From Schmidtea polychroa (taxonomy: Eukaryota): a DNA stretch of 64,000 nucleotides. Under the pieces are notes generated by a model, which worked only from the letters and a program-made list of their open reading frames with translations, did not search any database and was not told where the DNA came from. Position 1 is the first letter of the stretch. Every line of letters starts with the position of its first letter. Where the stretch lies: the NCBI GenBank assembly GCA_044892525.1, contig CM097885.1, positions 11,844,001 through 11,908,000 of the forward strand, in the 5' to 3' direction. Positions 15,602-49,731 of this stretch are shown here, in pieces. A program made the position numbers and the translations under genes.

Positions 15602-15726
15602 ATAAATGTATGTTTTGTTGATTTGTTGATTTGTTGAGCGTGACCAGTACCCTTGTGAGCATTACCCATAGGGGGACAAAATATTTTGTCGGATAGACTA
15701 GGAGTATATAGACTCGGAGTATATAG

Positions 15727-15883
<157 letters not shown>

Positions 15884-16044
15884 GTAACAAGATATATAGC
15901 TCATTCGAAAGGTCTTGGATTGAGCTTTAAAATGAGCTATCGATTATTAATTTTCGTTGGCGGGAACTTTGAAAAAATTAAAAATAAAATAATAATATTT
16001 TTAAAAATAATAATAAAAATAATAATATTTTTAAAAATAATAAT

Positions 16045-16810: not shown

Positions 16811-17139
16811 TAAAAAAAATTTGTACTTTTAGACTTAGCATATTTTTGAAAAATATGATGACGGGGGGGGGGTACTGTGCTAGCGGTGCCCTGTGCCAGC
16901 AGTGCCCAATCCATCTACTGACATTAACTTGCAGGTCACTCTATTTTCCAAGATTTAAGTTATTTTTTCAATATTGCAGGCTAAAACTCGTGTTTACTAC
17001 ATGTCGTTTTTGCCATAAGAAATAAACTCACAAAACCACCATCAAATACCACAGTCAATATGTAAAGAACATTCATCGGCATTGCGTCCAAGTTGCAAAA
17101 CTAAGTGTTGAAGTTATCAAGATCAAGAATAATATATAT

Positions 17140-20100
17140 TAGGGTGGGTCGAAAATTTTTTTTTTCTCCAAACATGCCTAAAAAGTTGTGCTTATGCTAG
17201 AAAATGAAATATCCCTGCAAAAGACTGCTGTTTAAAAGGGTTTACAGGTCCCAACTTTTGTTTGTATGTATTAGTACTATCCCAGTAAAAATGCTCGCAC
17301 ATGTGCCATTGTAAATTCATCCTGCAAGCAGTCACACGCTTGCAGAAAGACCATTTTTGACATGCTCTATTCACAAGTCCAAGCTAACGCGTGCATGTAT
17401 AGAGAGGTTAATTCACGGAAGCACCTTCACACAAGCACTCACAAAGACAATTTCTTCTGAACAATACTAACACACACACTACAGTCAACACATAATCCAC
17501 ATGGATACTACTAGTCAGTCTAAACTCAGATAATTTAATTTGTTTCGATTGGATGTCAAGTGTTTGCTGGACATAATTAAAAAAGTTAACTTGATGATTC
17601 ACTTTTATTTTGCCAGAGCTGAGTACAGAAGAGCAGTTATGAAGGGACAGAGAAATAAGCAATTTCGCAAAACAAGAAGTAAATCACGTCATTGTCTGTT
17701 TGGTCAAACTTGTGAACTACCCAGAAACCAATTACCTACTTGTGAAGATGTGTTTCGTGATTACTGTTACAATGAGAAATGTACGCAATTTCATACTGGC
17801 TTTAACGAACAAGCAACTCTTCTCGCAAATAAGGTGAAGGAAATTTATATGAAGGCAAGTATCCCAACTGTTGAGTTCAGTAGTATTGTGGTTCGTGTCA
17901 AGCGACTAATATCAAAAGTGCGTGAATTAGAGAAGTATCCAGTATGCAAGAGGTCATCTGCCAAATTTCAAGATAAGTTAAGCTCGTTTTCCAAATTGTT
18001 TGACATATGTTGCTGCAAATGTTTTAATGATGGTGCTCGTGGAAGAAGTCAGTGTACATGCCGATTGGCCTTGAAAATTCCTACCTTAGAGTGGGAGTTC
18101 TGGATTGACCAACAAACTACCAGAAACATGAAAATCGGAAATACGGACAGACAGGAAACCTCAAAATTGAAGAGAAAACAAACGAAAAGCAGCCCTACAG
18201 GAAAAGGAAAACAAATGAAAAATGAAATAATGGACACTGAAGTTAACGATCTACATCCGACCTCAAGAAGTGACACGGAGAGTGAAGCCGCTAGTGATGA
18301 AAGTAAAGATAAGTTAGACAATTCAACAGAAAGCTCAGAGTCAAGCGTAGAAGAATGTGATGAATTTCAAAATAGAAGACATTATCCTGAATTAAGTAAA
18401 GCTGTTGACAGATGTGGTGTGAGCAACAGAGACACGTGTTTGCTAGTAAACGCTTTTCTGAAAGATATGGAACTGTTATCCTCTCAAACAATCATCGATC
18501 CCGCAAAATTACGGCGTCAGAGAAAGTACTGGAGGGAGAGAGAAATTGAACAGCATTCAGCAGAAGCGAAAAACTTGATTTGCCTCGATTTCGACGGGAA
18601 ACAAGATTCCACCTTACTTCATAGAAGGATCCTAAAAGAGGAGCATTATGTGATTGTCGCCTTTCCAGGGGATACATATATCGATCATGTTGTACCTCAA
18701 AGTAGTAAAGCTGTGGATATTGGCAAAGAAATCATGTCAATCATCGTTAGCACGCAGTCCTCACTGACCCTTCAAGCAATTGTGTGCGATGGAACCAATA
18801 CAAACACCGGAAAAAATAATGGAATAATCAGAAGACTCGAAAAAAGCCTAGGGCGACCTCTACAATGGCTGATATGCTTGTTGCATGCAAATGAATTGCC
18901 ATTCAGGAAGTATTTTTCAGTCGTCGATGGTGGAGAAACAAAAGGTCCAAAAACGTCATGTGGTGAAATAGGAAGCGTTCTTGATTTTGATCCAAAAGAC
19001 AAGCCCGTAGTAGCCTTTATGTCCCTTCCTGGAAAGGTCGTAGATATTAGTGAAAATGTCAAGAAAGAATTGAACACTGATCAATTGTATTTCCTCAGAG
19101 TATGCTTGGCAGTCCAGAAAGGGTACCACAACAACAAGGATGTCCCTTTTCTACAAATGGCACAACCAGGAAATTTGAATCACAGTCGCTGGCTAACGAA
19201 AGCTAATAGAATTCTGCGACTATATATGTCCGAAACTGCTCCATCTGAACCTCTCATGCGAATAGTGAAATTTATTGTCAATTTCTATGGACCGTCATGG
19301 TTTTATATAAAGATTCACTCGTCATGCCAAGATGGTGCAAGAAATATTTTTTATATGCTCCAACTTCTGCAGGATTTGGATCCATCAGACCAAGAAATCA
19401 TCTTTCCTGTCATTCAGAACAACAATTACTTCTCACATCCAGAAAATATACTCCTAGCTGCTGTTGGTGATGATGATGAAGAAATCAGAAAGTTTGCAAC
19501 AGAAAAAATCATAACTGCAAGACAAAATTTTCTCCCTTCCGAAGTGATTCGCACTATGGACAAGAATACTGTCTTTCTTCAGTCGTCTGCTACATCATAT
19601 GCTGACATGATTGACTGGACAAAATGTAATTTGACGCCTCCCCCTCTTTTATCTCATATATTGGATCATGAATTGAAGATGAATAAGAAAATTACATTAG
19701 AACAATTTCCCTGTCATTCTCAAGCCGTTGAAAGAGCCATCAAAGATGTTTCTTCTGCCAGTTGCAAAGTGTTTGGTCACAAGTCCAGACATGGTATGGT
19801 ACTACTGTGTAAAAAATCAAGGAAGGAATTGCCCAAGGTGCAAAGCAAAGCTGATTTCATGTGACTTCTTTTTATGCCCTCGCTAATACATTTCTAAACT
19901 TTTGGCTGGATGTTTTTAATAAAAAATAATTTCGAAAGTTGATTTTTGTCTTTGAAAAGGATAATTCAAATTTGGCCCTTCCTAATCACTGACGTTGTCA
20001 GGATATATTTCAATGCGGGATGAGGACACAGAATATACTATCTCAGCCCAAGAGAGTAAATAATATACTTATAAGCTCTTAAGAAAGCTACATCTAAATA

Positions 20101-24100: not shown

Positions 24101-26044
24101 TGTCATAATTAACTGTAATGTATTCTTCATTTTTTAATGAATTATAAAAAGAAACTGAGAAATATAAAATTAAAATTAAACTTTTATTTTCTAATTTTAA
24201 TTGTTATTTATTTCACACAAATTTTCTGCATAACTTTTTTCAGGTGTTTGTCAATTCATCTTAATTTATTTGTTTAAATCATTGGGGCTATATGAAAAAC
24301 GCTTAAAATTAATTAAAATTTCAATAATAAAATTTAAAAAATAGAAATTAAAAACAAAGTTAATCATTACAAAATATTCTGGATCCTACAAAGTATAAAT
24401 TAAAAATACAAAAAAATTAATTAATTAATTAAATAATTAAAAAATAATTTACGTCATTAATCATTATGATGGTTGCAACAAAATTGTTATTTCGCCATGC
24501 AAAAAAACAATCAGTTAAATTAATACAATTTTTATTTTTTATTTTAGAATCTTTTCAGTAGCTTTTAGAAAAAATGAGAAGTTAATGTTTAAATAGCATT
24601 TAAGTAAAAGTTAAAAAATCAAAATATGTAAAAATCGCATTTGTTGTCGAAAAAAGAGAGATTCAGGTGTAGTTAGGAGAGCCGTAACAAGGGTGGTGCG
24701 AGCGGTGGAGTCGCACAGGGCGCACATCTGAAAGAGGTGCAAAATTGGGATGTAACATTTTTTTAATGTTATCAAAATTTAACAAAATATAAATAAAATA
24801 ATTATCAAATGGCATTCACGAAACAAAATGGCAAATTAGGTAGCCTGTCTTTAACATTACTGTTGGACTGGTCTATTAGGTGTGTATTTTGTAAAATATT
24901 AGTTCACAAAATGGGTTCTTGAGTAGGTAGTTAGGAGCCTACGGGAACAATAGGGGGGGGGGTAAAAAATGTTGCAAACTTTTGATTGCATAACTTTTTC
25001 CGTAGACATTTTTTGATTACATAATTGTTGCCGTAATGCCCAATGTTTTCTGGGATTTTAAATACAAAATTTTTTTTTCAATAAACAAGCCAAGGATAAA
25101 TATTATTTGGGTGGGTCTCCTTGGTCCTGAGAATTTCAATAGAAAAAGGTAGTCTTCAATAAAAAAGCATGGATTTTTCACACAATAGTGAGGGGATCTT
25201 CTTGGTCATGAGAATTTCAATAGAAAAGATGGTTTACATTAAAAACACATAGTAAATTTTTAAAATAAAGCAAATTATTGGTCTAAAATTTAAAAATAAA
25301 GTAAATGATGGGTCTAAAAAATTTAAGTAAATCAGGGTTCAGATTTTTTTTGAAATAAAGTAAATTATGGTCTAAATAAGTAAATTATGGGCTAAGATTT
25401 TTCAATTAAAGTAAATTATGGTCAAAATTTTAAAATTAAAGTAAATTAAGGTTCTAAAAATTAAATTACAGTAATTAATGGTCCAAATTTTTAAATTAAA
25501 GTAAATTTAGGTTCTAAAATATTAAATTAAAGTAAATAATTGTTCAAAATTTAAAATTAAAGTTAATTAAGGGCTCAACTAAGTAAATTATGGTTCAAAT
25601 TTTTAAATTAAGTAAATAATGGTTCTAAAAATTAAAGTAAATTAAGGTCCTAAAAAATTAAATTACAGTAAATAATGGGCACAAATAACTAAATTAAGGT
25701 TCTAAAAAATTAAATTAAAGTTAATTAAGGTCCAAATTTTAAAATTAAGTAATCAATGGTAAAAAAAAATTTTAAATTAAAGTTAAATAAGTAAATTAAA
25801 GTAATAATTTTTAAATAAGTAAATTAAAGTAAGATTTTAAAATTTATTAACAAAAAGTTGAAATAATAGAAGGTGTTTGAGAATTGAAATTTTTTAATGA
25901 AAATTTTAATGAAATATTTTTCAATGATAATTTTTAATGAAAATTTTAATGAAATAATTTTTTAAGTAATTTTAGATGGAAATTTTTATGGAATATTTTT
26001 CAATGTTAATTTTTAATGGAAATTTTAATAGAATAATTTTTTTT

Positions 26045-26123
<79 letters not shown>

Positions 26124-26315
26124 TATTAGTAATAATATATCAACCAAATACTATACAACACATAAAAAATTAACTAAACACATAAAAATAACTAGACACA
26201 TAACAAAACATATAAACATTAACTAAACACATAAAAATGAACTAGACACATAACAAACATAAAAATTTACCAAACAAATAACAAATGTATAGATATAAAC
26301 TTTTATTTAATAAAA

Positions 26316-29300
26316 TTAGTCCTCATCGGACAAAATAACGTCATCGATATCGATGTCATCTTCTCCAAAATCTTCATTTAATTCTTCCTCATCTTCTCCA
26401 AAATCTTCATTAAATTCTTCCTCATCTTCTCCAAAATCTTCATTTAATTCTTCCTCATCTTCTCCAACAATTTCTGCAACATTTTCTCTAATATTAAATT
26501 CACTTAATCTTACATGCCCATATGCAAGACTAGTATTTTCCCCCACCCAAACCCTTTTGTCGTCTTTGTTTGTTAGTGCTATTTTTGTGTTTTTAATTGT
26601 AAAAATTTGATGATTTTTGCTTGTTATTTTAGTCTGAGGAACCGAAAAAATCTGGTTAGTGTTATAACAATCCAGGTATGACTGATGTTTTATGTCACTA
26701 CCTTTCAATGTTACACCTTTAGCCTTTTTTGTTTCCTCATCACCCAACAAGCTATAACATTTAGGTCTAAGAAAAACCCATTCCTTATATTTAAGACCTT
26801 TATTCTCGTCTTTGAACTTTCCAATGACTGAATCAAGGTTCTTACTATATAAGGAATGACAACTATTGTAATTGGAAGTATCTAATAAATTATCTCGAAT
26901 CATTGCAGGTAAAAGAACCTCGAGTTTACAGTTAATGACTTCGAGGAAAAAAGAATCTGTATCACCTGCAACGATATTAATTTTACAATTAAACTCATTG
27001 CGAAATGATTCCAGATCCTTATATTGCAATTCATACATTCTAAGTTTAGATAGATCAAGTACAGATTGACCAATGTAACTTGGTCTATCTAAACATATAG
27101 AATCTGAATTCAATAATGCCGCGATTAAATTATCGTCTATTTTAATAGATTTTTTAAAAGTTGGCTTCGAAGAATATTTAACTAATTTATCGGCTGTTGT
27201 ACAAAGACGAAGATTCATTCTTCTCTTTAAATTTTCAACTGTTTTGCCGTATAAACTGTTATTTAGCAATTTATAATAATTTTTATCTAAGTTATTTATG
27301 CTTTTTGACCTTAATTCTGTATTTGTATCTATATATTTTTTAAAAATTGGAGATTGCTTAAATCTTACACCCCTATTTACACGTGTTACTTTAACACCAA
27401 GTTCCAAATATAATTTTAATAATCTCCAATGAATAACATAATTAGATTTTGGAAGATGAGTTAATAATAATTTTTCAACCTTAGACCCAGCAGGTTTCAT
27501 TTTTTCAGCAGCTACAGGGAAATCATCCAACTTATCATGAAGCTCAGAAGGAATTACAAGATCAACTTCAAGAGTGTATCCATAAGACAAAGATTCAAGA
27601 TTTAAATTCCTACATTCATCTATTATTAAATCAAATCCATCAAGAACCCAACTAAATTCGCCACAAGGTAATGATTGACTTAAAGCCCAACCATAAAGAT
27701 TATTAATATCTATATAAAGTAACTCGGTGTTCTCGTCGGTTTTTACGTAATGCTTATTGACAAAAGTAAGACCGCCTCTTATTCCACCCTCATAAAAGCT
27801 AAACATTTCGTTTTCAGTTATGAGCTCAATTGGTTCATTTAGAGACATTAATGCAGAAGACCAAGACATACCTGGAATTCCGAAATAATTCAATGGTTCC
27901 AATCTATTGTGAGCAATGGATTTCAACCGAAACTGATGAAAGAAATCAGCCAAAAGAAAACAATCAAGTTTTAGGTAGATCATCATATAATCTAATAAAG
28001 TTACGCAATTAGTTTCTACCCAAATCTCCTGAGCTTTTTCATACTCAAGCTCAGTGACACCTTCCCAGATTGGTGGTAATTCATAAGTAGTTTGGAGAAT
28101 ATCTAAAGAAGTGGCGAAATTATAAGGGAAGATTCCTTTTTCAGAAACTATAGTACCAGAAAAAGCAGAATTAGTAAAAGGCAAAGAATTCAAAGTTTTG
28201 ACTGCTTTAGCTAAAGAATCATTGACAAATTGATAAGAATCAATGAATCTTAAGCTAATTTTGCCTAAATGAGCAATCAAAGAAATAAATTTTTCACTCG
28301 TTATTGGGATGCAACCTAAAGTCCAATTTTTAAATTTATTTAATCCATATTTAAGTATATGATGCATATCGTATCCCTTCAAGTTATGAAATACGATAGG
28401 CAAAATTTTATTTATTTTCCTATTTATGTTACATGTGCTACAAGCTGCACCCAAGTATTTGCCCGTAAAATGATCGTGATCTCTAACAGGATCGACGATA
28501 GATTTCAAACAAAGATAACAAACGGAAGCACTAAGAAATTGATGTTGTTCAATTTTCGTTAATTTTATCATTGGTTTCCTACCCATTTTATAATAAAAAG
28601 GAAGAACCTTATTTAATGCTATATCCTCTATAGCACTTAAAAAACTCTCGACGCAATCTAAACCTATGAATTGTTGATATGATTTAGATCCGTCAAAGTT
28701 ATTTACTAGTAAAAGACCAGCAGATATTGGCATGTGTCGTTGGAAATGAAGATTATCAGAAGGTAAAATAGCCTCAAAATCGGCATAAACTACAAAAGGA
28801 GGAGTTACTGTTTTCGACCAGTCAGTAAACTGTAAGAATTTATTTTGAGGGAAAGTGTAAAGAGTTGTTCCTAATTGATTACGTTTACATAATATTTCAT
28901 GTTTTTCCAGTGCGTGTTTATACCTAAACCCATTCAAACACCGATGGCACCATAATGATTGTATGCGTGTAGGACAACTAGTTTTTATGTGGCAATTCAG
29001 TAACCTATTTAAATTACTTATAGCGACGTAATGGAAATTGTTTCCTTTATTTAATAATAGTAAATTAATTACAGTTCCATTTAAAACTTTGGAACGATGT
29101 ATAATGTCTAAATGTGGATGTTTTAAAACGTAATTATCTGTTAATTGTTTGCTATTGTCATAAGAAAAAACATTAATTATTAAGCCGGGATTTTTGGCCT
29201 CAAATTTTCTAATGTCTTTTAATTTCATGGGTAAATCTAATGGATTATATATTAAGTCTGATAAATTATAACTGGACGTCCTATTTCTATATTGTCTAAC

Positions 29301-30729
29301 AACCTCATCATATTTTAAAATAGCTAAAATGCTATATAAAAAACATGAATCATCGGTGTTTTTTATATTAATTAAACAATATTTATTTTTTAGACAAGTA
29401 GGTAGTTCAATGAAACTCCTACCACTTAATCTACTTAACCTACTTATTTTTGTTATGGTGAAGTGGATTTCAGTTATTTTTTTTATGATCCAACTACTTC
29501 CTAACTCTGTGATATTACTTATTTTCTCGTTTAGTTCCCTAATGCCTTCGTCAAAAAATGATGCAGTTAAAGGTTTTGCGTAATTCGAAATATTATTAAC
29601 CTTTATTTCCCCGTCTTTTTCAAATTCGATTGTTATTCCGAATTGAATTTTGACGGAGCCTAATTCGTTAATAATATCTCGTAATTTTATAATTAATCGT
29701 TCTGGAAATATTATTTCCTTTATATTCAAGTCGCTAGTATTTAAACTTAAAATTTGATGTGTACCCCTTAAATCTTTCTGTATTATGGGAACATTACCCC
29801 CTATTTGTATTATATTTAATCCATCCCAAGAATCAAAGGAATTGAATAATCCGACCTGGGATTCAACAACTAATCCGACCTGGGATTCAACAAAAGGCAA
29901 TCCGACCTGGGATTCAACAAAAGACAATCCGTCCTGAAATTCAACAACCAATCCATCATTGGATTCAACAACTAATCCGACCTGGGATTCAAAAGAAGAA
30001 GTATCTAATTTAATTTTTTTATTTGTATTATTTTTTTCTATAGTCGAAGGTCTTTTAAAAACACTATCTTTTTTAAAATTAAACCTATCTAAATGTTGTT
30101 TATGTTTATTATAAAAAACACTATATGTTACAGGGTCACTAGTCTTACATACGGGACATATAAAATATGTTTTATTATAATATTTTTTCGTGTAATAATT
30201 CTCCATTATAGAATGGCAATTATTATCATGTTCTTTCGATGAACAATAATTTGGATAAAGTATACCTATAAAATAAAAATTTAATAAAAAAAATATATAT
30301 ATAATTTAAATGAAATATTTTAATAAATGTTTACGCAAAAATTTACAAATTTTATTTACTAAAAAAAAATAAAAATTTACTAAATTAAAAATATTAACAT
30401 TTAATTAAATAAAAAATTATATTAAATTTCCTTTAAATTATATAAAAAAGTAATCAATACTTACATTGTAAATTTTCATTTCGATTTATTGACACATTGA
30501 CATAATTTTTCTCTTTATTCGTATTACCTAAATTATTAATTAATTAAATCAATAAATTAAAAATTATGTTTACTTTTTCTTTTCAAATTTCCTTTAATCT
30601 TCGATTTTAAATTGTCTTCATTAATATTATCTAAATTAATTAATAAATTAATTAATAAATAAATTAAAATTTACCAAATTCCTGAATTTTTTCTCGAACA
30701 TTCATAACGTTTTCTATTAAAGAATTCAT
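26316..30729 (-). CDS. polB: pPolB, left-arm copy; exons 30729-30675, 30630-30574, 30527-30465, 30265-26316
   Basis: 1296-aa ORF with Exo motifs (YADFE, HNLKGYD, YLKLD) and Pol motifs (YIDINNLYG, KLLNNSLYGK, GDTDS, KAKGV), an OTU-like NTDDSCF..HY segment, and upstream phase-1 micro-exons. Confidence 0.93.
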
Positions 30730-33004
30730 TTTTAAAGGTTAATTATTTGTTAAATGTGAATAATGATTGATTATTGTTTATAGATTATTATTGTTTATAG
30801 ATTATTATTGTTTATAGGAACAAATTCTAACCAATCAAAATCAAGGAAGGGTAGGGAAAAAATATATTACGTTGGGGTATTTTAAAATTGAAATTTATTT
30901 TAAAAACACATTTTGACGTTAAAGTCGAGTTATGTAACAAAGACATAATAAACTTATTATTTACTACAAATATTTCACCTATTTAATACCTAACTAGAGA
31001 TGATATATATTGATTGTTCATAAAAGCAAACTTAATCATATATTTCTGTATATTATTTTGTATATTATTTCTGTAAATTATCAAGTAAATTTAAAGTTCT
31101 TGATAAGGTTAAAATCATCATTAAAGCTTTAAATTTTTTAATAAATCAACATGAAATTCTTAGAAAATAATTGAAAAAAAAATATTATTACAAAGTCATA
31201 TCCTATCACGTGATTATTAACCTAACTGTCATTAAAAATAATTTTTATTTAAAATTAAAAAACCAATCAATAAAAATGCATCCAATTATCAAGAAATTAA
31301 TTAATAAAAATGCATCCAATTATCAAGAAATTAATTAATAAAAATGCATCCAATTATCAAGAAATTAATTAAATTTATCTTAGAACTAACTTAAAATTTT
31401 TAAATATTCATTCTATTCACATGAAATTCATGAAAATGATAAAAATTCACAAAAACCATCAACTCTAAAAAAAAAAATTACTAATGAATACCTTAAACAC
31501 AAAAATTTATCCAAATAATCTTTCAAATTAATTCATTAAAATTGAAGACAACACGCTCTATTTCGTCATTACATTCAATTAAAATTAAATAAAACAAGAT
31601 AAGAACTTTGATAAAAAATATTATTCTAAAATGGTAAGAATTAACACTGTAGTGTTAAATGAAAAGGTAATTATTCTTTAAATCTAATTATAATTATAAT
31701 CATATTTTTCTTTAATTTAACTCTTTATTTACTTAATTTAGTCATTGTTTACCGAATATAGAAGTTTAAAATATAGACCATTGATTACTTTAATTTAAAA
31801 ATGTATCCCTTAATTTACATAATTTCCATCTAAAATTATTTCAAAAAATTTTTTTTTTAAATTTGTCATTGAAAAATATTTCATAAAAGTTTTCATTAAA
31901 AATTATCTTAAAAATTATTCCATAAAAATTTCCATCTAAAATTACTTAAAAAAATTATTTCATAAAAATTTTCATTAAAAAATTTCAATTCTCAAACACC
32001 TTCTATTATTTTGTTAATAAATTTAAAATCTTACTTTAATTTGCTTATTACATTACTTATTTAAAAATTATTACTTTAATTTACTTATTTAAAATATTTG
32101 ACCATTGATTACTTAATTTAAAAATTTGGACCTTAATTTACTTTAATTTAATTTTTTAGAACCTTAATTTACTTTAATTTTAAATTTTGAACCTTAATTA
32201 ACTTTAATTCAAATTTGGACCTTAATTTACTTTAATTGAAAATTTTAGACCTTAATTTACTTAATTGAAATTTTAGATCTTAATTTACTTATTTATCTTT
32301 AATTTACTTGAGTTTAAAAATATATACCATAATTTACTTAATTGAAAATTTTAGACTTTATTTTAGAACTTAATTGAAAATTTCAGACATTAATTTACTT
32401 AATTGAAAATTTTAGACCATAATTTCATGTAAAATTTTAGACCATAATTTACTTATTTGAATATTTTAGACCTTAAATTGCTTAATTTAAAATTTTAGAC
32501 CTTAATTTGCTTATTTATCTTTAATTTACTTAAGTTTAAAAATATATACTATAATTTACTTTAATTTAAAATTTTATACCATAATTTACTTAATTGTAAA
32601 TTTTAGACCATAATTTCATGTAAAATTTTAGACCATAATTTACTTAATTGGAAATTTTAGACCTTAATTTGCTTATTTATCTTTAATTTACTTAAGTTTA
32701 AAAATATATACCATAATTTACTTAATTGAAAATTTTAGACTTTATTTTAGAACTTAATTGAAAATTTTAGACCTTAATTTGCCTAATTGAAAATTTTAGA
32801 CCTTAATTTACTTAATTGAAAATTTTAGACCTTAATTTGCTTAATTGAAAATTTTAGACCTTAATTTACTTAATTGAAAATTTTAGACCTTAATTTACTT
32901 AATTGAAAATTTTAGACCTTAATTTACTTAATTGAAAATTTTAGACCATAATTTTAATGTAAAATTGTTATTGAAAAAATTTTCATTTCTCAGGCGCCGT
33001 TTAT

Positions 33005-33311
33005 AGTAGGTAGTTAGTGGCCCGCTGCAAATGCAAGCCTTTTTTTATGCGGCACGATTTTTTTTTTACGGCAACTTTTGATTGCGCAATTGTTGCAACT
33101 TGTTTTTTTTTTTGTATTGAAAATTCTAGAAAAAAAAATAATACAGTTGCGTAATAATCCAAAAAAAAAATACAACAAAAAAAACTAGTTGCAACAATTG
33201 CGTAATAAAAAGTTGCAACAAAAAAAAGTTGCAACAAAAAAAAAGTTGCAACAACCCCCCCCCCCCCCCCGGGGGGGGGTAATTGTTGCAGCGGGCCACT
33301 ATCTACCTACT
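33005..33311. other. Central junction module bounded by terminus-like inverted repeats
   Basis: AGTAGGTAGTTAGTGGCCCGCTGCAA...TTGCAGCGGGCCACTATCTACCTACT, with an asymmetric interior containing GTTGCAAC repeats and a poly-C/poly-G run. Confidence 0.8.
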
Positions 33312-35449
33312 ATAAACGGCGCCTGAGAAATGAAAATTTTTTCAATGACAATTTTACATTAAAATTATGGTCTAAAATTTTCAATTAAGTAAATTAAGGT
33401 CTAAAATTTTCAATTAAGTAAATTAAGGTCTAAAATTTTCAATTAAGTAAATTAAGGTCTAAAATTTTCAATTAAGCAAATTAAGGTCTAAAATTTTCAA
33501 TTAAGTAAATTAAGGTCTAAAATTTTCAATTAGGCAAATTAAGGTCTAAAATTTTCAATTAAGTTCTAAAATAAAGTCTAAAATTTTCAATTAAGTAAAT
33601 TATGGTATATATTTTTAAACTTAAGTAAATTAAAGATAAATAAGCAAATTAAGGTCTAAAATTTCCAATTAAGTAAATTATGGTCTAAAATTTTACATGA
33701 AATTATGGTCTAAAATTTACAATTAAGTAAATTATGGTATAAAATTTTAAATTAAAGTAAATTATAGTATATATTTTTAAACTTAAGTAAATTAAAGATA
33801 AATAAGCAAATTAAGGTCTAAAATTTTAAATTAAGCAATTTAAGGTCTAAAATATTCAAATAAGTAAATTATGGTCTAAAATTTTACATGAAATTATGGT
33901 CTAAAATTTTCAATTAAGTAAATTAATGTCTGAAATTTTCAATTAAGTTCTAAAATAAAGTCTAAAATTTTCAATTAAGTAAATTATGGTATATATTTTT
34001 AAACTCAAGTAAATTAAAGATAAATAAGTAAATTAAGGTCTAAAATTTCAATTAAGTAAATTAAGGTCTAAAATTTTCAATTAAAGTAAATTAAGGTCCA
34101 AATTTGAATTAAAGTAAATTAAGGTTCTAAAAAATTAAATTAAAGTAAATTAAGGTCCAAATTTTTAAATTAAGTAATCAATGGTCAAATATTTTAAATA
34201 AGTAAATTAAAGTAATAATTTTTAAATAAGTAATGTAATAAGCAAATTAAAGTAAGATTTTAAATTTATTAACAAAATAATAGAAGGTGTTTGAGAATTG
34301 AAATTTTTTAATGAAAATTTTTATGAAATAATTTTTTTAAGTAATTTTAGATGGAAATTTTTATGGAATAATTTTTAAGATAATTTTTAATGAAAACTTT
34401 TATGAAATATTTTTCAATGACAAATTTAAAAAAAAAATTTTTTGAAATAATTTTAGATGGAAATTATGTAAATTAAGGGATACATTTTTAAATTAAAGTA
34501 ATCAATGGTCTATATTTTAAACTTCTATATTCGGTAAACAATGACTAAATTAAGTAAATAAAGAGTTAAATTAAAGAAAAATATGATTATAATTATAATT
34601 AGATTTAAAGAATAATTACCTTTTCATTTAACACTACAGTGTTAATTCTTACCATTTTAGAATAATATTTTTTATCAAAGTTCTTATCTTGTTTTATTTA
34701 ATTTTAATTGAATGTAATGACGAAATAGAGCGTGTTGTCTTCAATTTTAATGAATTAATTTGAAAGATTATTTGGATAAATTTTTGTGTTTAAGGTATTC
34801 ATTAGTAATTTTTTTTTTTAGAGTTGATGGTTTTTGTGAATTTTTATCATTTTCATGAATTTCATGTGAATAGAATGAATATTTAAAAATTTTAAGTTAG
34901 TTCTAAGATAAATTTAATTAATTTCTTGATAATTGGATGCATTTTTATTAATTAATTTCTTGATAATTGGATGCATTTTTATTAATTAATTTCTTGATAA
35001 TTGGATGCATTTTTATTGATTGGTTTTTTAATTTTAAATAAAAATTATTTTTAATGACAGTTAGGTTAATAATCACGTGATAGGATATGACTTTGTAATA
35101 ATATTTTTTTTTCAATTATTTTCTAAGAATTTCATGTTGATTTATTAAAAAATTTAAAGCTTTAATGATGATTTTAACCTTATCAAGAACTTTAAATTTA
35201 CTTGATAATTTACAGAAATAATATACAAAATAATATACAGAAATATATGATTAAGTTTGCTTTTATGAACAATCAATATATATCATCTCTAGTTAGGTAT
35301 TAAATAGGTGAAATATTTGTAGTAAATAATAAGTTTATTATGTCTTTGTTACATAACTCGACTTTAACGTCAAAATGTGTTTTTAAAATAAATTTCAATT
35401 TTAAAATACCCCAACGTAATATATTTTTTCCCTACCCTTCCTTGATTTT

Positions 35450-35520
35450 GATTGGTTAGAATTTGTTCCTATAAACAATAATAATCTATAAACAATAATA
35501 ATCTATAAACAATAATCAAT
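35450..35520 (+). promoter_or_regulatory. Putative Pol II promoter of the right-arm pPolB (inverted CCAAT plus triplicated TATAAACAAT)
   Basis: GATTGG at ~35450 and three TATAAA units 45-90 nt before the predicted ATG at 35557. The element-1 pPolB shows the same layout. Confidence 0.5.
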
Positions 35521-35556
35521 CATTATTCACATTTAACAAATAATTAACCTTTAAAA

Positions 35557-38500
35557 ATGAATTCTTTAATAGAAAACGTTATGAATGTTCGAGAAAAAAT
35601 TCAGGAATTTGGTAAATTTTAATTTATTTATTAATTAATTTATTAATTAATTTAGATAATATTAATGAAGACAATTTAAAATCGAAGATTAAAGGAAATT
35701 TGAAAAGAAAAAGTAAACATAATTTTTAATTTATTGATTTAATTAATTAATAATTTAGGTAATACGAATAAAGAGAAAAATTATGTCAATGTGTCAATAA
35801 ATCGAAATGAAAATTTACAATGTAAGTATTGATTACTTTTTTATATAATTTAAAGGAAATTTAATATAATTTTTTATTTAATTAAATGTTAATATTTTTA
35901 ATTTAGTAAATTTTTATTTTTTTTTAGTAAATAAAATTTGTAAATTTTTGCGTAAACATTTATTAAAATATTTCATTTAAATTATATATATATTTTTTTT
36001 ATTAAATTTTTATTTTATAGGTATACTTTATCCAAATTATTGTTCATCGAAAGAACATGATAATAATTGCCATTCTATAATGGAGAATTATTACACGAAA
36101 AAATATTATAATAAAACATATTTTATATGTCCCGTATGTAAGACTAGTGACCCTGTAACATATAGTGTTTTTTATAATAAACATAAACAACATTTAGATA
36201 GGTTTAATTTTAAAAAAGATAGTGTTTTTAAAAGACCTTCGACTATAGAAAAAAATAATACAAATAAAAAAATTAAATTAGATACTTCTTCTTTTGAATC
36301 CCAGGTCGGATTAGTTGTTGAATCCCAGGACGGATTAGTTGTTGAATCCAATGATGGATTGGTTGTTGAATTTCAGGACGGATTGTCTTTTGTTGAATCC
36401 CAGGTCGGATTGCCTTTTGTTGAATCCCAGGTCGGATTAGTTGTTGAATCCCAGGTCGGATTATTCAATTCCTTTGATTCTTGGGATGGATTAAATATAA
36501 TACAAATAGGGGGTAATGTTCCCATAATACAGAAAGATTTAAGGGGTACACATCAAATTTTAAGTTTAAATACTAGCGACTTGAATATAAAGGAAATAAT
36601 ATTTCCAGAACGATTAATTATAAAATTACGAGATATTATTAACGAATTAGGCTCCGTCAAAATTCAATTCGGAATAACAATCGAATTTGAAAAAGACGGG
36701 GAAATAAAGGTTAATAATATTTCGAATTACGCAAAACCTTTAACTGCATCATTTTTTGACGAAGGCATTAGGGAACTAAACGAGAAAATAAGTAATATCA
36801 CAGAGTTAGGAAGTAGTTGGATCATAAAAAAAATAACTGAAATCCACTTCACCATAACAAAAATAAGTAGGTTAAGTAGATTAAGTGGTAGGAGTTTCAT
36901 TGAACTACCTACTTGTCTAAAAAATAAATATTGTTTAATTAATATAAAAAACACCGATGATTCATGTTTTTTATATAGCATTTTAGCTATTTTAAAATAT
37001 GATGAGGTTGTTAGACAATATAGAAATAGGACGTCCAGTTATAATTTATCAGACTTAATATATAATCCATTAGATTTACCCATGAAATTAAAAGACATTA
37101 GAAAATTTGAGGCCAAAAATCCCGGCTTAATAATTAATGTTTTTTCTTATGACAATAGCAAACAATTAACAGATAATTACGTTTTAAAACATCCACATTT
37201 AGACATTATACATCGTTCCAAAGTTTTAAATGGAACTGTAATTAATTTACTATTATTAAATAAAGGAAACAATTTCCATTACGTCGCTATAAGTAATTTA
37301 AATAGGTTACTGAATTGCCACATAAAAACTAGTTGTCCTACACGCATACAATCATTATGGTGCCATCGGTGTTTGAATGGGTTTAGGTATAAACACGCAC
37401 TGGAAAAACATGAAATATTATGTAAACGTAATCAATTAGGAACAACTCTTTACACTTTCCCTCAAAATAAATTCTTACAGTTTACTGACTGGTCGAAAAC
37501 AGTAACTCCTCCTTTTGTAGTTTATGCCGATTTTGAGGCTATTTTACCTTCTGATAATCTTCATTTCCAACGACACATGCCAATATCTGCTGGTCTTTTA
37601 CTAGTAAATAACTTTGACGGATCTAAATCATATCAACAATTCATAGGTTTAGATTGCGTCGAGAGTTTTTTAAGTGCTATAGAGGATATAGCATTAAATA
37701 AGGTTCTTCCTTTTTATTATAAAATGGGTAGGAAACCAATGATAAAATTAACGAAAATTGAACAACATCAATTTCTTAGTGCTTCCGTTTGTTATCTTTG
37801 TTTGAAATCTATCGTCGATCCTGTTAGAGATCACGATCATTTTACGGGCAAATACTTGGGTGCAGCTTGTAGCACATGTAACATAAATAGGAAAATAAAT
37901 AAAATTTTGCCTATCGTATTTCATAACTTGAAGGGATACGATATGCATCATATACTTAAATATGGATTAAATAAATTTAAAAATTGGACTTTAGGTTGCA
38001 TCCCAATAACGAGTGAAAAATTTATTTCTTTGATTGCTCATTTAGGCAAAATTAGCTTAAGATTCATTGATTCTTATCAATTTGTCAATGATTCTTTAGC
38101 TAAAGCAGTCAAAACTTTGAATTCTTTGCCTTTTACTAATTCTGCTTTTTCTGGTACTATAGTTTCTGAAAAAGGAATCTTCCCTTATAATTTCGCCACT
38201 TCTTTAGATATTCTCCAAACTACTTATGAATTACCACCAATCTGGGAAGGTGTCACTGAGCTTGAGTATGAAAAAGCTCAGGAGATTTGGGTAGAAACTA
38301 ATTGCGTAACTTTATTAGATTATATGATGATCTACCTAAAACTTGATTGTTTTCTTTTGGCTGATTTCTTTCATCAGTTTCGGTTGAAATCCATTGCTCA
38401 CAATAGATTGGAACCATTGAATTATTTCGGAATTCCAGGTATGTCTTGGTCTTCTGCATTAATGTCTCTAAATGAACCAATTGAGCTCATAACTGAAAAC

Positions 38501-39994
38501 GAAATGTTTAGCTTTTATGAGGGTGGAATAAGAGGCGGTCTTACTTTTGTCAATAAGCATTACGTAAAAACCGACGAGAACACCGAGTTACTTTATATAG
38601 ATATTAATAATCTTTATGGTTGGGCTTTAAGTCAATCATTACCTTGTGGCGAATTTAGTTGGGTTCTTGATGGATTTGATTTAATAATAGATGAATGTAG
38701 GAATTTAAATCTTGAATCTTTGTCTTATGGATACACTCTTGAAGTTGATCTTGTAATTCCTTCTGAGCTTCATGATAAGTTGGATGATTTCCCTGTAGCT
38801 GCTGAAAAAATGAAACCTGCTGGGTCTAAGGTTGAAAAATTATTATTAACTCATCTTCCAAAATCTAATTATGTTATTCATTGGAGATTATTAAAATTAT
38901 ATTTGGAACTTGGTGTTAAAGTAACACGTGTAAATAGGGGTGTAAGATTTAAGCAATCTCCAATTTTTAAAAAATATATAGATACAAATACAGAATTAAG
39001 GTCAAAAAGCATAAATAACTTAGATAAAAATTATTATAAATTGCTAAATAACAGTTTATACGGCAAAACAGTTGAAAATTTAAAGAGAAGAATGAATCTT
39101 CGTCTTTGTACAACAGCCGATAAATTAGTTAAATATTCTTCGAAGCCAACTTTTAAAAAATCTATTAAAATAGACGATAATTTAATCGCGGCATTATTGA
39201 ATTCAGATTCTATATGTTTAGATAGACCAAGTTACATTGGTCAATCTGTACTTGATCTATCTAAACTTAGAATGTATGAATTGCAATATAAGGATCTGGA
39301 ATCATTTCGCAATGAGTTTAATTGTAAAATTAATATCGTTGCAGGTGATACAGATTCTTTTTTCCTCGAAGTCATTAACTGTAAACTCGAGGTTCTTTTA
39401 CCTGCAATGATTCGAGATAATTTATTAGATACTTCCAATTACAATAGTTGTCATTCCTTATATAGTAAGAACCTTGATTCAGTCATTGGAAAGTTCAAAG
39501 ACGAGAATAAAGGTCTTAAATATAAGGAATGGGTTTTTCTTAGACCTAAATGTTATAGCTTGTTGGGTGATGAGGAAACAAAAAAGGCTAAAGGTGTAAC
39601 ATTGAAAGGTAGTGACATAAAACATCAGTCATACCTGGATTGTTATAACACTAACCAGATTTTTTCGGTTCCTCAGACTAAAATAACAAGCAAAAATCAT
39701 CAAATTTTTACAATTAAAAACACAAAAATAGCACTAACAAACAAAGACGACAAAAGGGTTTGGGTGGGGGAAAATACTAGTCTTGCATATGGGCATGTAA
39801 GATTAAGTGAATTTAATATTAGAGAAAATGTTGCAGAAATTGTTGGAGAAGATGAGGAAGAATTAAATGAAGATTTTGGAGAAGATGAGGAAGAATTTAA
39901 TGAAGATTTTGGAGAAGATGAGGAAGAATTAAATGAAGATTTTGGAGAAGATGACATCGATATCGATGACGTTATTTTGTCCGATGAGGACTAA
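35557..39994 (+). CDS. polB: pPolB, right-arm copy; exons 35557-35611, 35656-35712, 35759-35821, 36021-39994
   Basis: 1304-aa ORF matching the left copy except for one extra 8-aa repeat unit; three phase-1 GT-AG introns. Confidence 0.93.
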
Positions 39995-40186
39995 TTTTAT
40001 TAAATAAAAGTTTATATCTATACATTTGTTATTTGTTTGGTAAATTTTTATGTTTGTTATGTGTCTAGTTCATTTTTATGTGTTTAGTTAATGTTTATAT
40101 GTTTTGTTATGTGTCTAGTTATTTTTATGTGTTTAGTTAATTTTTTATGTGTTGTATAGTATTTGGTTGATATATTATTACTAATA

Positions 40187-40247
<61 letters not shown>

Positions 40248-41405
40248 AAAAAAAAATTATTCTATTAAAATTTCCATTAAAAATTAACATTGAAAAATAT
40301 TCCATAAAAATTTCCATCTAAAATTACTTAAAAAATTATTTCATTAAAATTTTCATTAAAAAATTTCAATTCTCAAACACCTTCTATTATTTCAACTTTT
40401 TGTTAATAAATTTTAAAATCTTACTTTAATTTACTTATTTAAAAATTATTACTTTAATTTACTTATTTAACTTTAATTTAAAATTTTTTTTTACCATTGA
40501 TTACTTAATTTTAAAATTTGGACCTTAATTAACTTTAATTTAATTTTTTAGAACCTTAATTTAGTTATTTGTGCCCATTATTTACTGTAATTTAATTTTT
40601 TAGGACCTTAATTTACTTAGTTGAGCCCTTAATTAACTTTAATTTTAAATTTTGAACAATTATTTACTTTAATTTAATATTTTAGAACCTAAATTTACTT
40701 TAATTTAAAAATTTGGACCATTAATTACTGTAATTTAATTTTTAGAACCTTAATTTACTTTAATTTTAAAATTTTGACCATAATTTACTTTAATTGAAAA
40801 ATCTTAGCCCATAATTTACTTTATTTCAAAAAAAATCTGAACCCTGATTTACTTAAATTTTTTAGACCCATCATTTACTTTATTTTTAAATTTTAGACCA
40901 ATAATTTGCTTTATTTTAAAAATTTACTATGTGTTTTTAATGTAAACCATCTTTTCTATTGAAATTCTCATGACCAAGAAGATCCCCTCACTATTGTGTG
41001 AAAAATCCATGCTTTTTTATTGAAGACTACCTTTTTCTATTGAAATTCTCAGGACCAAGGAGACCCACCCAAATAATATTTATCCTTGGCTTGTTTATTG
41101 AAAAAAAAATTTTGTATTTAAAATCCCAGAAAACATTGGGCATTACGGCAACAATTATGTAATCAAAAAATGTCTACGGAAAAAGTTATGCAATCAAAAG
41201 TTTGCAACATTTTTTACCCCCCCCCCCCCCCCCCTATTGTTCCCGTAGGCTCCTAACTACCTACTTTCTTGTCATTTTTTCAATTAGCAACAAAATTTTA
41301 AGAGTATTACTACCTATTATAATAGCTGGCAATGAATACATAGTTAACAATCTCAACATGAACATTATAGTATATTTTTTTCCAATTTCACCACTGATTT
41401 TCTTT

Positions 41406-41873: not shown

Positions 41874-42795
41874 AGTAGTATGATTGGTCACCGCCCGGCC
41901 ATGAGCCCGCCCGGCCACATATACCCCCTCCCCCCGGATGAAAAAAAAATTCTAGAACGATGCCACATATTTTTAGAACTATTACGTAATCGATGCCACA
42001 TATTTTTAGAACGATGCCTCATATTTTTAGAACTATTACATAATCGACGCCTAATATTTTTAGAACGATGCCTCATATTTTTAGAACTATTACGTAATCG
42101 ACGCCTCATATTATTATTCAAAATATTATTAGTGATCAATCGGGGACATGGTTTTCGTTTGCCCAAAAGTTATCGTTCCCATTATCCGAATTTATTGGAC
42201 GATACCTCATCTTAAAGCCCTTTGCAAGACCTTTAAAATGAGTTATAGATTCCTATCATCCTATGACTCGTCATATTTTTAGAACGATGCCTCTTATTTT
42301 TAGAATGATTACGTCATATTTTTAGAACGATGTCTCTTATTTTTAGAACGATTACGTCATTATTTTAGAACGATGCATCATATTTTTAGAATGATTACGT
42401 CATTATTTTAGAACGATGCCTCATATTTTTCGAATGATTACGTCATTATTTTAGAACGACGCCTCTTATTTTTAGAATGATTACGTCATATTTTTAGAAC
42501 GATGACTCATCCTATGACTCATCATATTTTTAGAACTATTACATAATCGATGCCTCATTATTTTTAGAACGATGACTCATACGATGATTCATCAATGTCA
42601 CTATAATTTTAGTAATAAAGACATCTATTTTTAGCAACATTTTAAATCTATTTTTAGTAACATTTTCGAACCAATGTTTTAATTATCGATTATGTAATAA
42701 TTTGATTTTGTTTAAATCATTGATTATATTATAATTTTTTTGTTTTAATTATCGATTACGTAATAATTTAACTTATCATTATCGCACGCGCGAGA

Positions 42796-42846
<51 letters not shown>

Positions 42847-43066
42847 TTTCTCCGAGTTTATCCGACACGATATTCTGTCCCCCTAAGGGTAATGGTCACA
42901 AAGGTACTGCTAAAACTTTAACATATTATTACACACAATGTATAAAAAATATTATTAGTGTCCACACATGCTACAAGTTAGTATTCCCATCGATAGCTCA
43001 TCTTAAAGTTTAGTGTAAGATCTATCTAATGATATATTATTATTATAATTGGTAAAGATGTTATTA

Positions 43067-43143
<77 letters not shown>

Positions 43144-43235
43144 TAAAACAATAAAATGATAATTTAAGCCTTTTGCTGCAAATAATGTATTTAATGAAAG
43201 AATTTTCGACTATACGATAGTCCTTGTCAATCTCC

Positions 43236-43324
<89 letters not shown>

Positions 43325-43727
43325 GGTAAAGATATTAACACTTGCGCGAAAGATGTTATTATTATTATTATGATTATTATGATTATTATTATATCTAGTC
43401 CGAGTTTATCTGACAAGATATTCTGTCCCCACACACATTCTATATACACATACCTTATTATTTCAAAGTAACACGCGCGGGAGTTATTATTATTATCAAA
43501 AATCTAAAATATGGTTTACACACACACACAACCCATTAACAATTATTATTATGAATATTAGTGAAAATCTAAAATATAGTTTACACACACACACACAACC
43601 CATTAACAATTATTATTATGAATATTAGTGAAAACCTAAAATATTTTCTACACACATACACAACCCATTATTATTATCAATATTAAAAACCTAAAATATT
43701 TTCTACACACATACACAACCCATTAAC

Positions 43728-43793
<66 letters not shown>

Positions 43794-46700
43794 GATTATG
43801 ATTATTATGATTATTATTATATATAGTCAGAGTCTATCCGACAAGATATTCTGTCCCCCTATGGGTATTGCTCATATGGGTAATGGTCACAAGGGTACTA
43901 CTCACACTCAACATGTCGCAAAGGTTTTCGATCTTAAAGCATATTATGGTTTATTAAGGTTAGTAAATAAAACTTATCACACACACTTTAATATTTAAAC
44001 GATAAAAAATCAAGACAAGAGAGGACAAGGCAAAGTGTATGCATTTAGTATTGCCAGGCCTAATGAGCAGTGACCAAATATTTGAAAGACACGGTGGATA
44101 TTTGTTCGCGTCCACAAGGGTCGTCTGTGCCTCCCCCAAGTGGGGTCAGAAGAACCTGGGCATTATAGCTTTCCGTACGGAACATTACGCCTAGCATGAG
44201 TAGTCAACTACCAGCACATTCGAAACGTATAATTTCAAAATGCATGCGTCATTGGCACTATAGCCAAATTAATTAATGTTTTCACTAACACAAATATATA
44301 TTTACAGAGGCCTCCCACTAGTTGGATTACAACCGCCCACCACGACGATCAGCTTGTAAATATATATTAATTAAGGGATAAAGAGGACCCACCCAACCCT
44401 ATTATATTTAATTTACAAAAGGTTTCTCGCTCTTCTGCTGGTAATCTATCTCAAAATTATCATCTCCATCGGGCCATTTGAAATACATCTTGCAAATTGG
44501 ACGTATTTCTTAGTTTCTGATGCGGTGTCAACTATCATTGCTAAAATTTATATTGATTTAAAAGCAATTAACTTACAGATGTTATCTAGCATTTTATCGT
44601 CAAAAATTAAATTCTGTCTGACTATTAGGCAACTGTTATTTGTGGTATACTTTTTCAATGACATTTCCCACCATAAAACACAGATACCTAAATATAATAA
44701 ATATATATTTTAAAGAATTAATTCATGTCTTACATTAATAATAATATTCTTCAGGTATGACGAGTACTTTACTTAATTGCTAAAACATCGGTTTTCCCAT
44801 TTTTTTGACATTCGTTGAAACTTTACATAATTTAAGTCTGATAATTCATGTTGAAGGACACCCACAATCAGCTAATTCATTTAAAACATCCAGAACATAA
44901 GTCATTTAGTGTTTCACCATTTTGTCTGGTTCATCTTCTTCATAATCATATAATTCATTTTCTTCATTACTAAGTAAAATAATTAAAATATTGTAGTAAA
45001 TTCTTTATTTAATTACTTTATGGATACTAAATCGAAAGAAATAAAGTTATATGAAAAGTTTATTTAAATAATTTAAATTTAGTTATTTAAAAATATTTAA
45101 ACAATTTAGTTATTTAAGCATATTTAAACATTATTATATACATTATTATATAAACATTATTATCTTACCACCTGAGAATAATATTGTTAATTTATCTCGG
45201 TGTTATTAAAATTATCTTTCGACTTTACGCTTCTTACCATTTTAGAATAAGATTTTTTATCAAAATTTGTGTTAATTTGACTGATTCAATTTGATGGAGT
45301 TATTGTTAATTCGTTTTATTATATATACTCTGGGTTTATCCGACAAGATATTTTCTCCCTCTATGGGTACTGTTCACAATTGGTACTGCTCGTAAGGGTA
45401 CTGGTCGTAAAGGTACTGGTGTGTTTTATTTAGGCAAATTTTTGGTTATTATTTAGCATTAAATTCATTGGTAATTTTTAGAGTTAGCGGGATTTTACTA
45501 ACATTATTACTAACCTTTTTGTGAATAATTGAAAGAATATTTTAAAATTTAACGTTTTAGTGTTAATTCTAAGACAAATTTAATTAATTTCTTGATAATT
45601 TGCTATATTTTATTGACTTGTTTTTAAATTTACTTTTAAATAAAAATATTTTTAATGGCAGTTAGGTTAATAATTAGAGTTTTTACAATAATCAAGTTAT
45701 TATTATTTAATTTTTGTAAAAATTATTGTAAAATATACTGAAATTTGTGATTTTGAAAGATATATCACGTTATAATTGCTATATAATTAGCTGAATCGAT
45801 AAAGAATTATGATCAATCGATATATTTCATCTCTAGTTAGGTATTTGATGGTAAATGTGGTGAAATATTTGTAGAAAATATTGATTTTAGTAAATTTTGA
45901 TTTTTTAATGGGCTCTTACTACATGAATTTAAATACTAAATTATTTCAATGGAAGGATGTCTGTAACAATTAAATAAAATTCATATTTTGAAGAATTTTC
46001 TATGGATTTTAAGAGAATTGATATATTAAAGGTCTGATATATTAAAGTCGGTTGGTTAAGATGGTAATAGATGATTTTTAAGGTGTTTAAAATGATAGAA
46101 ATATTTGGTGAGGGATCGGTTAAGGTGGAAATGTTTGAAATCTCTATTTAAATCGACAATGTTCTTATTGGTAAATTTTAAAGGGAAATAGTCAGTATTT
46201 AGCTATGAATTAATAATAGTTCCTGTGAAATTATATCGTTTTAGAGGTTTATTAGGTTGTGATGAATGTTATTGCACAGTAATTTAGATTTATGTTTTAG
46301 AACCAGTTTTTTATTAATTATCCACTGTTTTATTAAGTCGTTTAGGGTTAATGATCAATTTACTTGGTTTTCACAATGAAATATTTGAAATCTTTAGAAT
46401 TAATTGGGATTGATATCAAAGGTTATTGCTTTAAATTATTTTACTTAAGAAGTTATTTTATTCATTGTGGGGACATCAGTGACAAAACTTGAGAAATATT
46501 GACTTAAAAGTTGGAAATCGACAACAGCTAAAGAAAATTGATCTTTATTGAAGGAATTTTATGATTTTAATTAGAAATTAAATCGGTTGAATATCAGTTA
46601 ATCTATTGAAGGAATATTGTTATCGGATGGATAAATGATATTTTGCCAAATTACCTTTGCTAAATATTATTTTAAATCACTAAAAATGAGAAAAATAAGC

Positions 46701-49240: not shown

Positions 49241-49303
<63 letters not shown>

Positions 49304-49640
49304 GTTAATGGGTTGTGTATGTGTGTAGAAAATATTTTAGGTTTTTAATATTGATAATAATAATGGGTTGTGTATGTGTGTAGAAATTATTTTAGGTTTT
49401 CACTAATATTCATAATAATAATTGTTAATGGGTTGTGTGTGTGTGTGTGTAAACCATATTTTAGATTTTTGATAATAATAATAACTCCCGCGCGTGTTAC
49501 TTTGAAATAATAAGGTATGTGTATATAGAATGTGTGTGGGGACAGAATATCTTGTCAGATAAACTCTGACTATATATAATAATAATCATAATAATCATAA
49601 TAATAATAACATCTTTCGCGCAGGTGTTAATATCTTTACC

Positions 49641-49731
<91 letters not shown>

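Follow-up and report, generated by a model that had tools for sequence, protein, structure and literature searches.

The 64,000-nucleotide stretch of Schmidtea polychroa DNA analysed here (NCBI GenBank assembly GCA_044892525.1, contig CM097885.1, positions 11,844,001 to 11,908,000), hereafter the window, contains a giant palindrome of Polinton type with a gene for a putative protein-primed DNA polymerase of family B (pPolB) in each arm. The palindromic element occupies window positions 24922-41265, or 16,344 bp (G000:C1:11868922-11885265), and a self-BLAST covered its whole length in a single inverted alignment. It opens with AGTAGGTAGTTAG at 24922 and closes with the reverse complement, CTAACTACCTACT, at 41265, the end motif being AGTAGGTAG, and it lies between direct target-site duplications (TSDs) of 6 bp, TTCTTG at 24916-24921 and again at 41266-41271 (both plus strand), beyond which the sequence is not mirrored. 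The left arm (24922-33004, 8,083 bp) begins with the outer terminus, a G run and sub-terminal repeats, and the right arm (33312-41265, 7,954 bp) is its reverse complement; together the arms make up 98.9% of the element. Outside the centre, alignment of the halves showed the ~8-kb arms to differ by 7 indels and 2 substitutions, and a third substitution was located in the stem of the central cassette described below. All the indels fall in runs or repeat units, namely a poly-G run, 17-54-bp repeat units and an in-frame 24 bp in pPolB. Each arm carries repeat arrays at both of its ends, represented in the left arm by outer arrays of ~29-31-bp and 13/27/40-bp repeats (25253-26042) and by inner arrays of 13/27/40-bp and 29-bp units (31832-32954). 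Outer and inner arrays are inverted with respect to each other, degenerate and about 74% identical, so that an arm plus the cassette resembles a small Polinton that has terminal inverted repeats (TIRs) and is bounded by a terminus on either side. Part of the central stretch of the element was present in 17 of the 24 runs listed, always as assembled contigs, and no RNA run among those listed contained it.

The two outward-pointing pPolB genes are the only ATG-initiated open reading frames (ORFs) of at least 120 aa in the element. The left copy (26316-30206, minus strand) encodes 1296 aa and the right copy (36080-39994, plus strand) 1304 aa, with zero substitutions between them and one additional 24-bp repeat unit in the latter. 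No other stop-to-stop frame longer than 55 aa was found in 30200-33000, and tblastn with the proteins of a neighbouring Polinton as probes detected no integrase, capsid or ATPase inside the element or in any fetched copy of its family; for a protease the search covered ORFs only, and none of at least 120 aa other than pPolB is present. The sequence-only reading from which this analysis started had placed the element at these same coordinates, with AGTAG..CTACT ends, an exact 6-bp TSD, small indels between the arms (including 24 bp in pPolB) and only two divergent intact pPolB genes without integrase, capsid or ATPase, and on re-checking each of these descriptions proved accurate.

The predicted pPolB protein contains vOTU-like residues (Cys288/His392), exonuclease motifs, an EndoVII/HNH-like insertion, polymerase motifs A, B and C, and an acidic tail. 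Its AlphaFold model (pLDDT 91) had phi29 polymerase as best PDB matches (E 6e-19) and adintovirus, densovirus-labelled and MELD PolBs as best viral fold matches, indicating that pPolB is, on its modelled fold, a phi29-like protein-primed family B polymerase; a PDB sequence search returned 0 matches. The Cys and His residues appear to fit the vOTU domain described for Polinton pPolBs, as assigned by motif (PMC11161782). The insertion is a zinc finger of the form CxxC..DHDH..CxxCN at aa 563-593 (28428-28520, minus strand) within the exonuclease domain, and its Pfam match, PF02945 (E 0.0012), lies below the curated cut-off, although PF02945 is marked on many homologues. The CxxC..DHDH and CxxCN finger occurs in 26 of 26 intact pPolB copies and the scored motifs each occur in 24-26 of the 26, intact copies being 26 of the 54 extracted, some others of which were shortened by the extraction itself. 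An HNH/EndoVII-like domain within the exonuclease region, as judged here by motif, marks the pPolB2 type, and the finger is a general pPolB2 trait and not special to the palindromic family. Neither the Pfam scan nor the fold matches revealed a helicase in pPolB, so that it is no transpoviron-type pPolB-helicase fusion.

The sequence-only reading had called the element fully palindromic. This holds for the mirrored arms but not for the centre, which is no simple turn: positions 33005-33311 form a 307-bp cassette that opens with AGTAGGTAG and closes with CTACCTACT, and thus carries a second, inward-facing pair of terminal motifs. Its left end, here called A, is AGTAGGTAG..GCAAATGCAAGC, whereas its right end, B, carries a C run/G run; the two diverge beyond ~25 bp. 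End B resembles the outer termini of many other elements and sister families, with 1161 genome matches to the shared motif, whereas end A was seen solely inside cassettes at the loci examined. The cassette is predicted to fold into an imperfect hairpin with a 50-nt loop and a 25-bp A:B closing stem (-95 kcal/mol, z -14.7), and none of 100 shuffled cassettes was equally stable. Its flanks, GTTTAT|..|ATAAAC, mirror each other, and at every dimer, that is, at every two-armed copy, the base preceding the cassette and the one following it are exactly complementary and the junction is free of duplication. The cassette middle occurs 97 times in the genome and the arm-cassette junction 190 times, with 76 of the 100 listed junctions in facing pairs; part of these centres are those of gene-less versions that have the same ends. 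We examined 62 cassettes, 24 of which could not be typed at both ends. Of the 34 that were typed at both ends and had an arm on either side, 26 were B/A, 6 A/A, 2 unclear/A and none B/B. Non-arm sequence adjoined the B end in 4 cassettes (three single-arm candidates and one internal inversion) and the A end in 0 of the 38 cassettes typed at both ends. The idea that the cassette is an inserted mini-element was rejected, as no TSD surrounds it in any dimer and no free-standing cassette occurred among the 62, but it may still apply to the origin of the cassette. At three further centres (G000:C1:182199129, 182229266 and 182241561) the arm is joined directly to a shortened terminus and the rest of the cassette is absent.

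When the genome was searched with the pPolB gene, 37 of 3348 candidate places were scored; they are 94-100% identical and correspond to 27 loci, and in the neighbourhoods fetched a mirrored arm, whole or partial, was present at 23 of the 27. The 21 pPolB elements with two ends comprise 18 with an exact 6-bp TSD, 2 with one mismatch and 1 with none, where the chance of a match is ~0.0008 per site; across all 33 elements with both ends in hand the corresponding numbers are 27, 4 and 2, and the flanks are unmirrored. Thirteen pPolB palindromes are complete and uninterrupted, with lengths of 15.8-17.0 kb, and several copies have lost their centre. The palindromes therefore constitute a family of independently integrated dimers, most of them with an exact TSD of their own. 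Palindromic copies elsewhere with different TSDs, which the sequence-only reading had proposed to look for, were in this way found, and the direct TSDs and unmirrored flanks at many dimers bear out its suggestion that the element transposed already in palindromic form. A one-off rearrangement is ruled out by the 23 of 27 mirrored loci, the 190 junctions and the exact TSDs at 18 of 21 elements. Two copies on different chromosomes (G000:C1:130882752 and C3:41043736) have the same TSD and flanks and represent a duplicated locus or an assembly duplicate.

The two arms of an element are far more alike than the elements are. In the 21 elements, with identity taken as assembled, pPolB substitutions between arms had a median of 0.05% (0.0005) vs 3.3% (0.033) between elements, and the arms were mutual nearest relatives in 18 of 21 pairs, two of the exceptions being one duplicated locus. 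Substitutions private to an element were found in both arms in 101 cases and in one arm in 53. Between elements, the ratio of non-synonymous to synonymous substitution (dN/dS) had a median of 0.135 and a range of 0.07-0.30 (136 pairs with dS >0.02, 18 elements), and pPolB is thus under purifying selection; arm-to-arm changes within elements comprised 1 synonymous and 13 non-synonymous, as expected of neutral decay after insertion. Since the shared changes show purifying selection and the arm-private ones are neutral, changes common to both arms have passed through replication of the element. Taken together, the arm similarity and the selection pattern indicate that the palindrome is the transposing unit, that the resetting of its arms takes place at or before every insertion, and that lineages with a working pPolB are the ones that spread. 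The dN/dS of 0.135 and the intact catalytic motifs also lend support to the earlier description of the element as self-replicating.

Besides dimers, the genome contains integrated single arms that end at the cassette. One of them (G000:C1:169744056-169760095) runs from the B end of a cassette through one pPolB arm, itself carrying an 8-kb insertion, to an outer end, with TSD ATCAGC, and another (G000:C1:215441205-215449239) is gene-less, 8,035 bp long, ends at the B end and has TSD TAAATG. A third candidate, a whole pPolB arm ending at B (C1:150352686-150360834), lacks a TSD and was rejected as an integrated monomer. A composite element (G000:C2:181267630-181291710) contains a pPolB element of a second family (54% identical protein) inserted in an arm of the present one, and the whole 24 kb, including the insertion junction, is a mirror image around the cassette that belongs to the second family and is flanked by the TSD TAAATG. 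That cassette (G000:C2:181279852-181280262) has another sequence and the same plan, with two inward AGTAG termini and a 29-bp stem. Its junction occurs 250 times, and 72 of the 100 listed occurrences form facing pairs; palindromy was checked in one copy.

Without an integrase of its own, the family would need a helper. One family copy (C3:120831045) sits within the TIR of another element, which opens with the same AGTAGGTAGTTAG motif and continues into TBP, ATPase and integrase genes. The ATPase-integrase module occurs at no fewer than 41 scored places, 4 of the 41 listed belonging to elements with a listed family-type terminus ~2 kb away, one of them only after an inserted palindrome is discounted; this tie covers one subtype among the first 100 of 120 places, with at least 13 terminal bases in common. 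The satellite thus has termini in common with a family of this genome that encodes an integrase, which agrees with the earlier view that it is helper-integrated, and from the TSDs, the absent integrase and the shared ends we infer that it may be mobilized in trans by a helper Polinton. The 37 pPolB places scored out of 3348 candidates included no close autonomous parent.

Of the relatives seen with an integrase, the nearest is a Polinton in the window itself, 59% identical in pPolB at the amino-acid level; its ends are different, and it is a less likely helper. This 19.4-kb Polinton (window 1-16919, left end at G000:C1:11841471) has AGTAGATGG ends, TSD GACATT and TIRs of ~1.1 kb, and contains the pPolB just mentioned, putative capsids, an integrase, an ATPase and a small TBP-fold gene at 12145-12582 (Pfam E 1e-15). 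Integrase, ATPase and TBP genes 97-99% identical to those of the window Polinton adjoin a very different pPolB (28%) at G000:C3:12358528-12368527, which suggests polymerase swapping. Two facing ATPase-integrase modules 11 kb apart (G000:C3:88987449 and 88996977) possibly form a palindrome with an integrase module. On the other side of the element, window 41874-50983 is taken up by another Polinton-type derivative with long TIRs; it is 9.1 kb long, has AGTAGT ends, the TSD ATTGTC and inverted arms of >3 kb, and contains no ORF of 120 aa. Gene-less palindromes of 14.2-16.7 kb with the outer ends and central cassette of the pPolB family were found at G000:C1:44846375, 48356590 and 54474469. Five loci with B-type outer ends (G000:C1:9889602, 12035669, 23261756, 29291495 and 36955886) were fetched and all 5 were palindromes of 14.7-17.2 kb, with no match to the Polinton protein probes and an exact TSD in 4 of 5. 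The related 750-aa ORFs at window 17594-19864 and 52048-54306, 35% identical and without Pfam match, are presumably transposases of another DNA transposon.

Given these observations, it is reasonable to suggest, as the account that we hold to be probable though by no means assured, that the family is a polymerase-only Polinton satellite in the form of a giant inverted dimer, maintained by protein-primed strand displacement, with the cassette as the site of fold-back priming and a helper responsible for integration. The unit genome would be one ~8-kb arm whose inner end is A-cassette-B. The pPolB would prime at the terminal AGTAG repeats and copy by strand displacement; a displaced strand ending in B', the complement of B, could then pair back on A over the 25-bp stem and extend along the arm to give an 8-kb hairpin, which on being copied would yield a duplex of 16 kb whose arms are identical. 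The displaced strand of a dimer would snap back at once and rebuild a duplex origin, initiation or processing at the internal B end could give rise to occasional single-arm forms, and the integrase, possibly with capsids, would be supplied in trans by the autonomous family with AGTAGGTAG ends, leaving 6-bp TSDs. On such fold-back of B' onto A, the first bases added would complement those preceding A and no duplication would result, which is the junction seen at every dimer. Moreover, copying of the B side onto the A side would produce A/A when the primer end is shortened and could not produce B/B. In yeast and mammalian cells it is established that fold-back priming takes place at short inverted repeats (PMC7999016). 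The dimers (15.8-17.0 kb), the gene-less palindromes (14.2-17.2 kb) and the full elements (13.7-19.4 kb) are of similar size; doubling may thus match the size of a helper capsid, and dimers may dominate since doubling brings the genome to helper size (15.8-17.0 kb). The alternative of a snap-back defective genome, raised in the sequence-only reading, fits in that a fold-back point is present, which looks like a dedicated, conserved terminus cassette, but not in the term defective, as pPolB is maintained by selection.

Several observations weigh against this fold-back account. At 4 of the 27 pPolB loci no mirrored arm was found in the 10 kb fetched. Monomers are rare, with 3 candidates among the 62 cassettes, though unpaired junctions were fetched on purpose; the gene-less one is a chimaera, and in the pPolB monomer with the 8-kb insertion the gene that is broken off at the left is not resumed in the right flank. 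The A/A class consists of 6 copies, possibly of common descent, and for 24 of the 62 cassettes typing at both ends failed; since these six copies are not independent, the direction of the A/A vs B/B difference is suggestive only. Arm differences are not lowest beside the centre, with 7.7 substitutions/kb in the first kb vs 0.5-1.1 in unique sequence, but any identity gradient from the centre is confounded because that first kb is a repeat array. The dimer can in principle replicate without a monomer stage, assembly polishing could inflate arm identity, and the link to the helper is one of shared ends alone.

The explanation that competes best is the racket model taken to its limit, in which one ancient fold-back was followed by dimer-only replication, the arms stay similar through mismatch repair or template switching in a full-length hairpin of the displaced strand, the cassette is left over as a relic, and monomers stem from accidental use of the internal end. 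Dimers outnumber monomers ~30:1, as dimer-only replication would have it, a single-stranded racket intermediate is the standing model for Polintons (PMC4196379), and the sister gene-less palindromes are mirrored too (terminus cassettes in their centres were sought by motif scan only). Nevertheless, symmetric repair predicts neither 6 A/A against 0 B/B nor a mirrored copy of the composite's long heterologous insertion, and a second family with its own cassette in the same place, at 250 junctions, would be needless for a mere relic; we therefore regard dimer-only replication as possible but on the whole unlikely. Homogenization after insertion, by host cruciform repair or intrachromatid gene conversion, would draw on the recombinogenic nature of large palindromes (PMC7999016) and on the several copies that have lost their centre, but it is hard to reconcile with arm-private changes that are neutral (1 synonymous, 13 non-synonymous) while shared ones show purifying selection, and it leaves the cassette and the monomer TSDs unexplained, which makes it improbable. 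An assembly artefact, with palindromes or arm identity created by fold-back chimaeric reads or polishing, is very improbable, because even though polishing cross-mapping might yield such within-locus identity, the elements have unique, unmirrored flanks and direct TSDs (27 of 33), the same junction recurs at 190 places, the arms differ by in-frame and repeat-unit indels, and the window is without any N.

Beyond the fold-back account itself, our results raise the tentative possibility of a distinct replicon class with a monomer-dimer cycle, in which the internal termini would act as a programmed switch for fold-back, one arm being rebuilt from the other in each round, and which would have emerged or been retained in two or more divergent polymerase families, with an 8-kb genome doubled to helper-capsid size. 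The EndoVII-like finger might reopen the hairpin or cruciform to give monomers, although the opening of hairpins by this finger is speculation. Ideas on Polinton replication have so far come almost entirely from sequence, the standing model being one with a hairpin-like single-stranded intermediate. Dozens of dated palindromes from independent insertions, concerted arms, a fixed fold-back junction and integrated single arms together provide a fossil record of the replication intermediate, and this gives sharp predictions in the form of 8-kb and 16-kb linear forms, snap-back DNA and the direction of arm copying. This analysis adds the terminus cassette, single-arm forms found integrated, the asymmetry between A/A and B/B, the composite in mirror image, the test for selection and the second family. 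If true, a polymerase-only element that is under purifying selection and borrows its integrase would be a satellite of a type intermediate between linear plasmids and Polintons. Palindromes of 16 kb, about a hundred in each family, also matter for the stability of the genome and for its assembly, the latter because short-read assemblies collapse them.

The element fails as an autonomous Polinton, having no integrase or virion genes and oversized inverted repeats, yet it is Polinton-like in its ends, TSD and polymerase. It shares with Polintons/Mavericks the AGTAG-type ends, the 6-bp TSD and a TP-vOTU-exonuclease-palm polymerase with an HNH-like insertion (10.1101/2023.08.22.554363; PMC11161782), and its length is near the vertebrate Maverick mean of 16.9 kb (PMC8097293). 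Polinton-type TSDs of 5-8 bp are matched by the exact 6 bp at 27 of 33 elements. Unlike autonomous Polintons, the family lacks integrase, capsid and ATPase genes, its pPolB is doubled, it has an internal terminus pair, and it exists in single- and double-arm forms. Polinton inverted repeats are given as 100-1500 bp (10.1101/2023.08.22.554363) or 46-1447 bp (PMC8097293), in contrast to ~8 kb here, five times the upper range. No description of whole-length palindromic Polintons was found in the available literature; Repbase, subscription journals, the 2006 founding paper and supplements lay outside this search and may contain such. No inverted repeat longer than 552 bp was present in 111 viral or metagenome loci with a related pPolB (47 of them of at least 8 kb, and including the best 80 of 566 metagenome matches), a weak negative since short-read contigs collapse palindromes and only these best 80 of the 566 were covered. 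Two complete-looking IMG/VR contigs of 6.5 and 9.8 kb have a related pPolB and TIRs of 270-500 bp.

Non-autonomous Polinton derivatives depend on a helper integrase and keep their ends, and such derivatives with helper-dependent integration were reportedly described by Kapitonov and Jurka in 2006. The present family resembles them in its kept ends and its apparent helper-integrase dependence, whereas it keeps a pPolB under purifying selection, is palindromic over its whole length and has concerted arms. Partial Polinton remnants are also known (PMC11414722), and the same lineage has given rise to linear plasmids and transpovirons (PMC11161782). Eukaryotic linear pPolB plasmids, like transpovirons, are likewise capsid-less linear replicons with their own polymerase, the present family being known here from integrated sequence, and unlike in transpovirons its pPolB has no helicase fusion. 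We know of no description of linear plasmids or transpovirons integrating with Polinton-type TSDs or as whole-length palindromes. Tetrahymena rDNA and snap-back defective viral genomes are comparable fold-back palindromes. In yeast and mammalian fold-back amplicons a free end likewise folds at a short inverted repeat and primes, to give a large palindrome with a short non-palindromic centre (PMC7999016). What sets the family apart from such amplicons and defective genomes is that its inverted repeat is its own replication and integration terminus, and that, far from a one-off or a dead end, it is a heritable mobile family.

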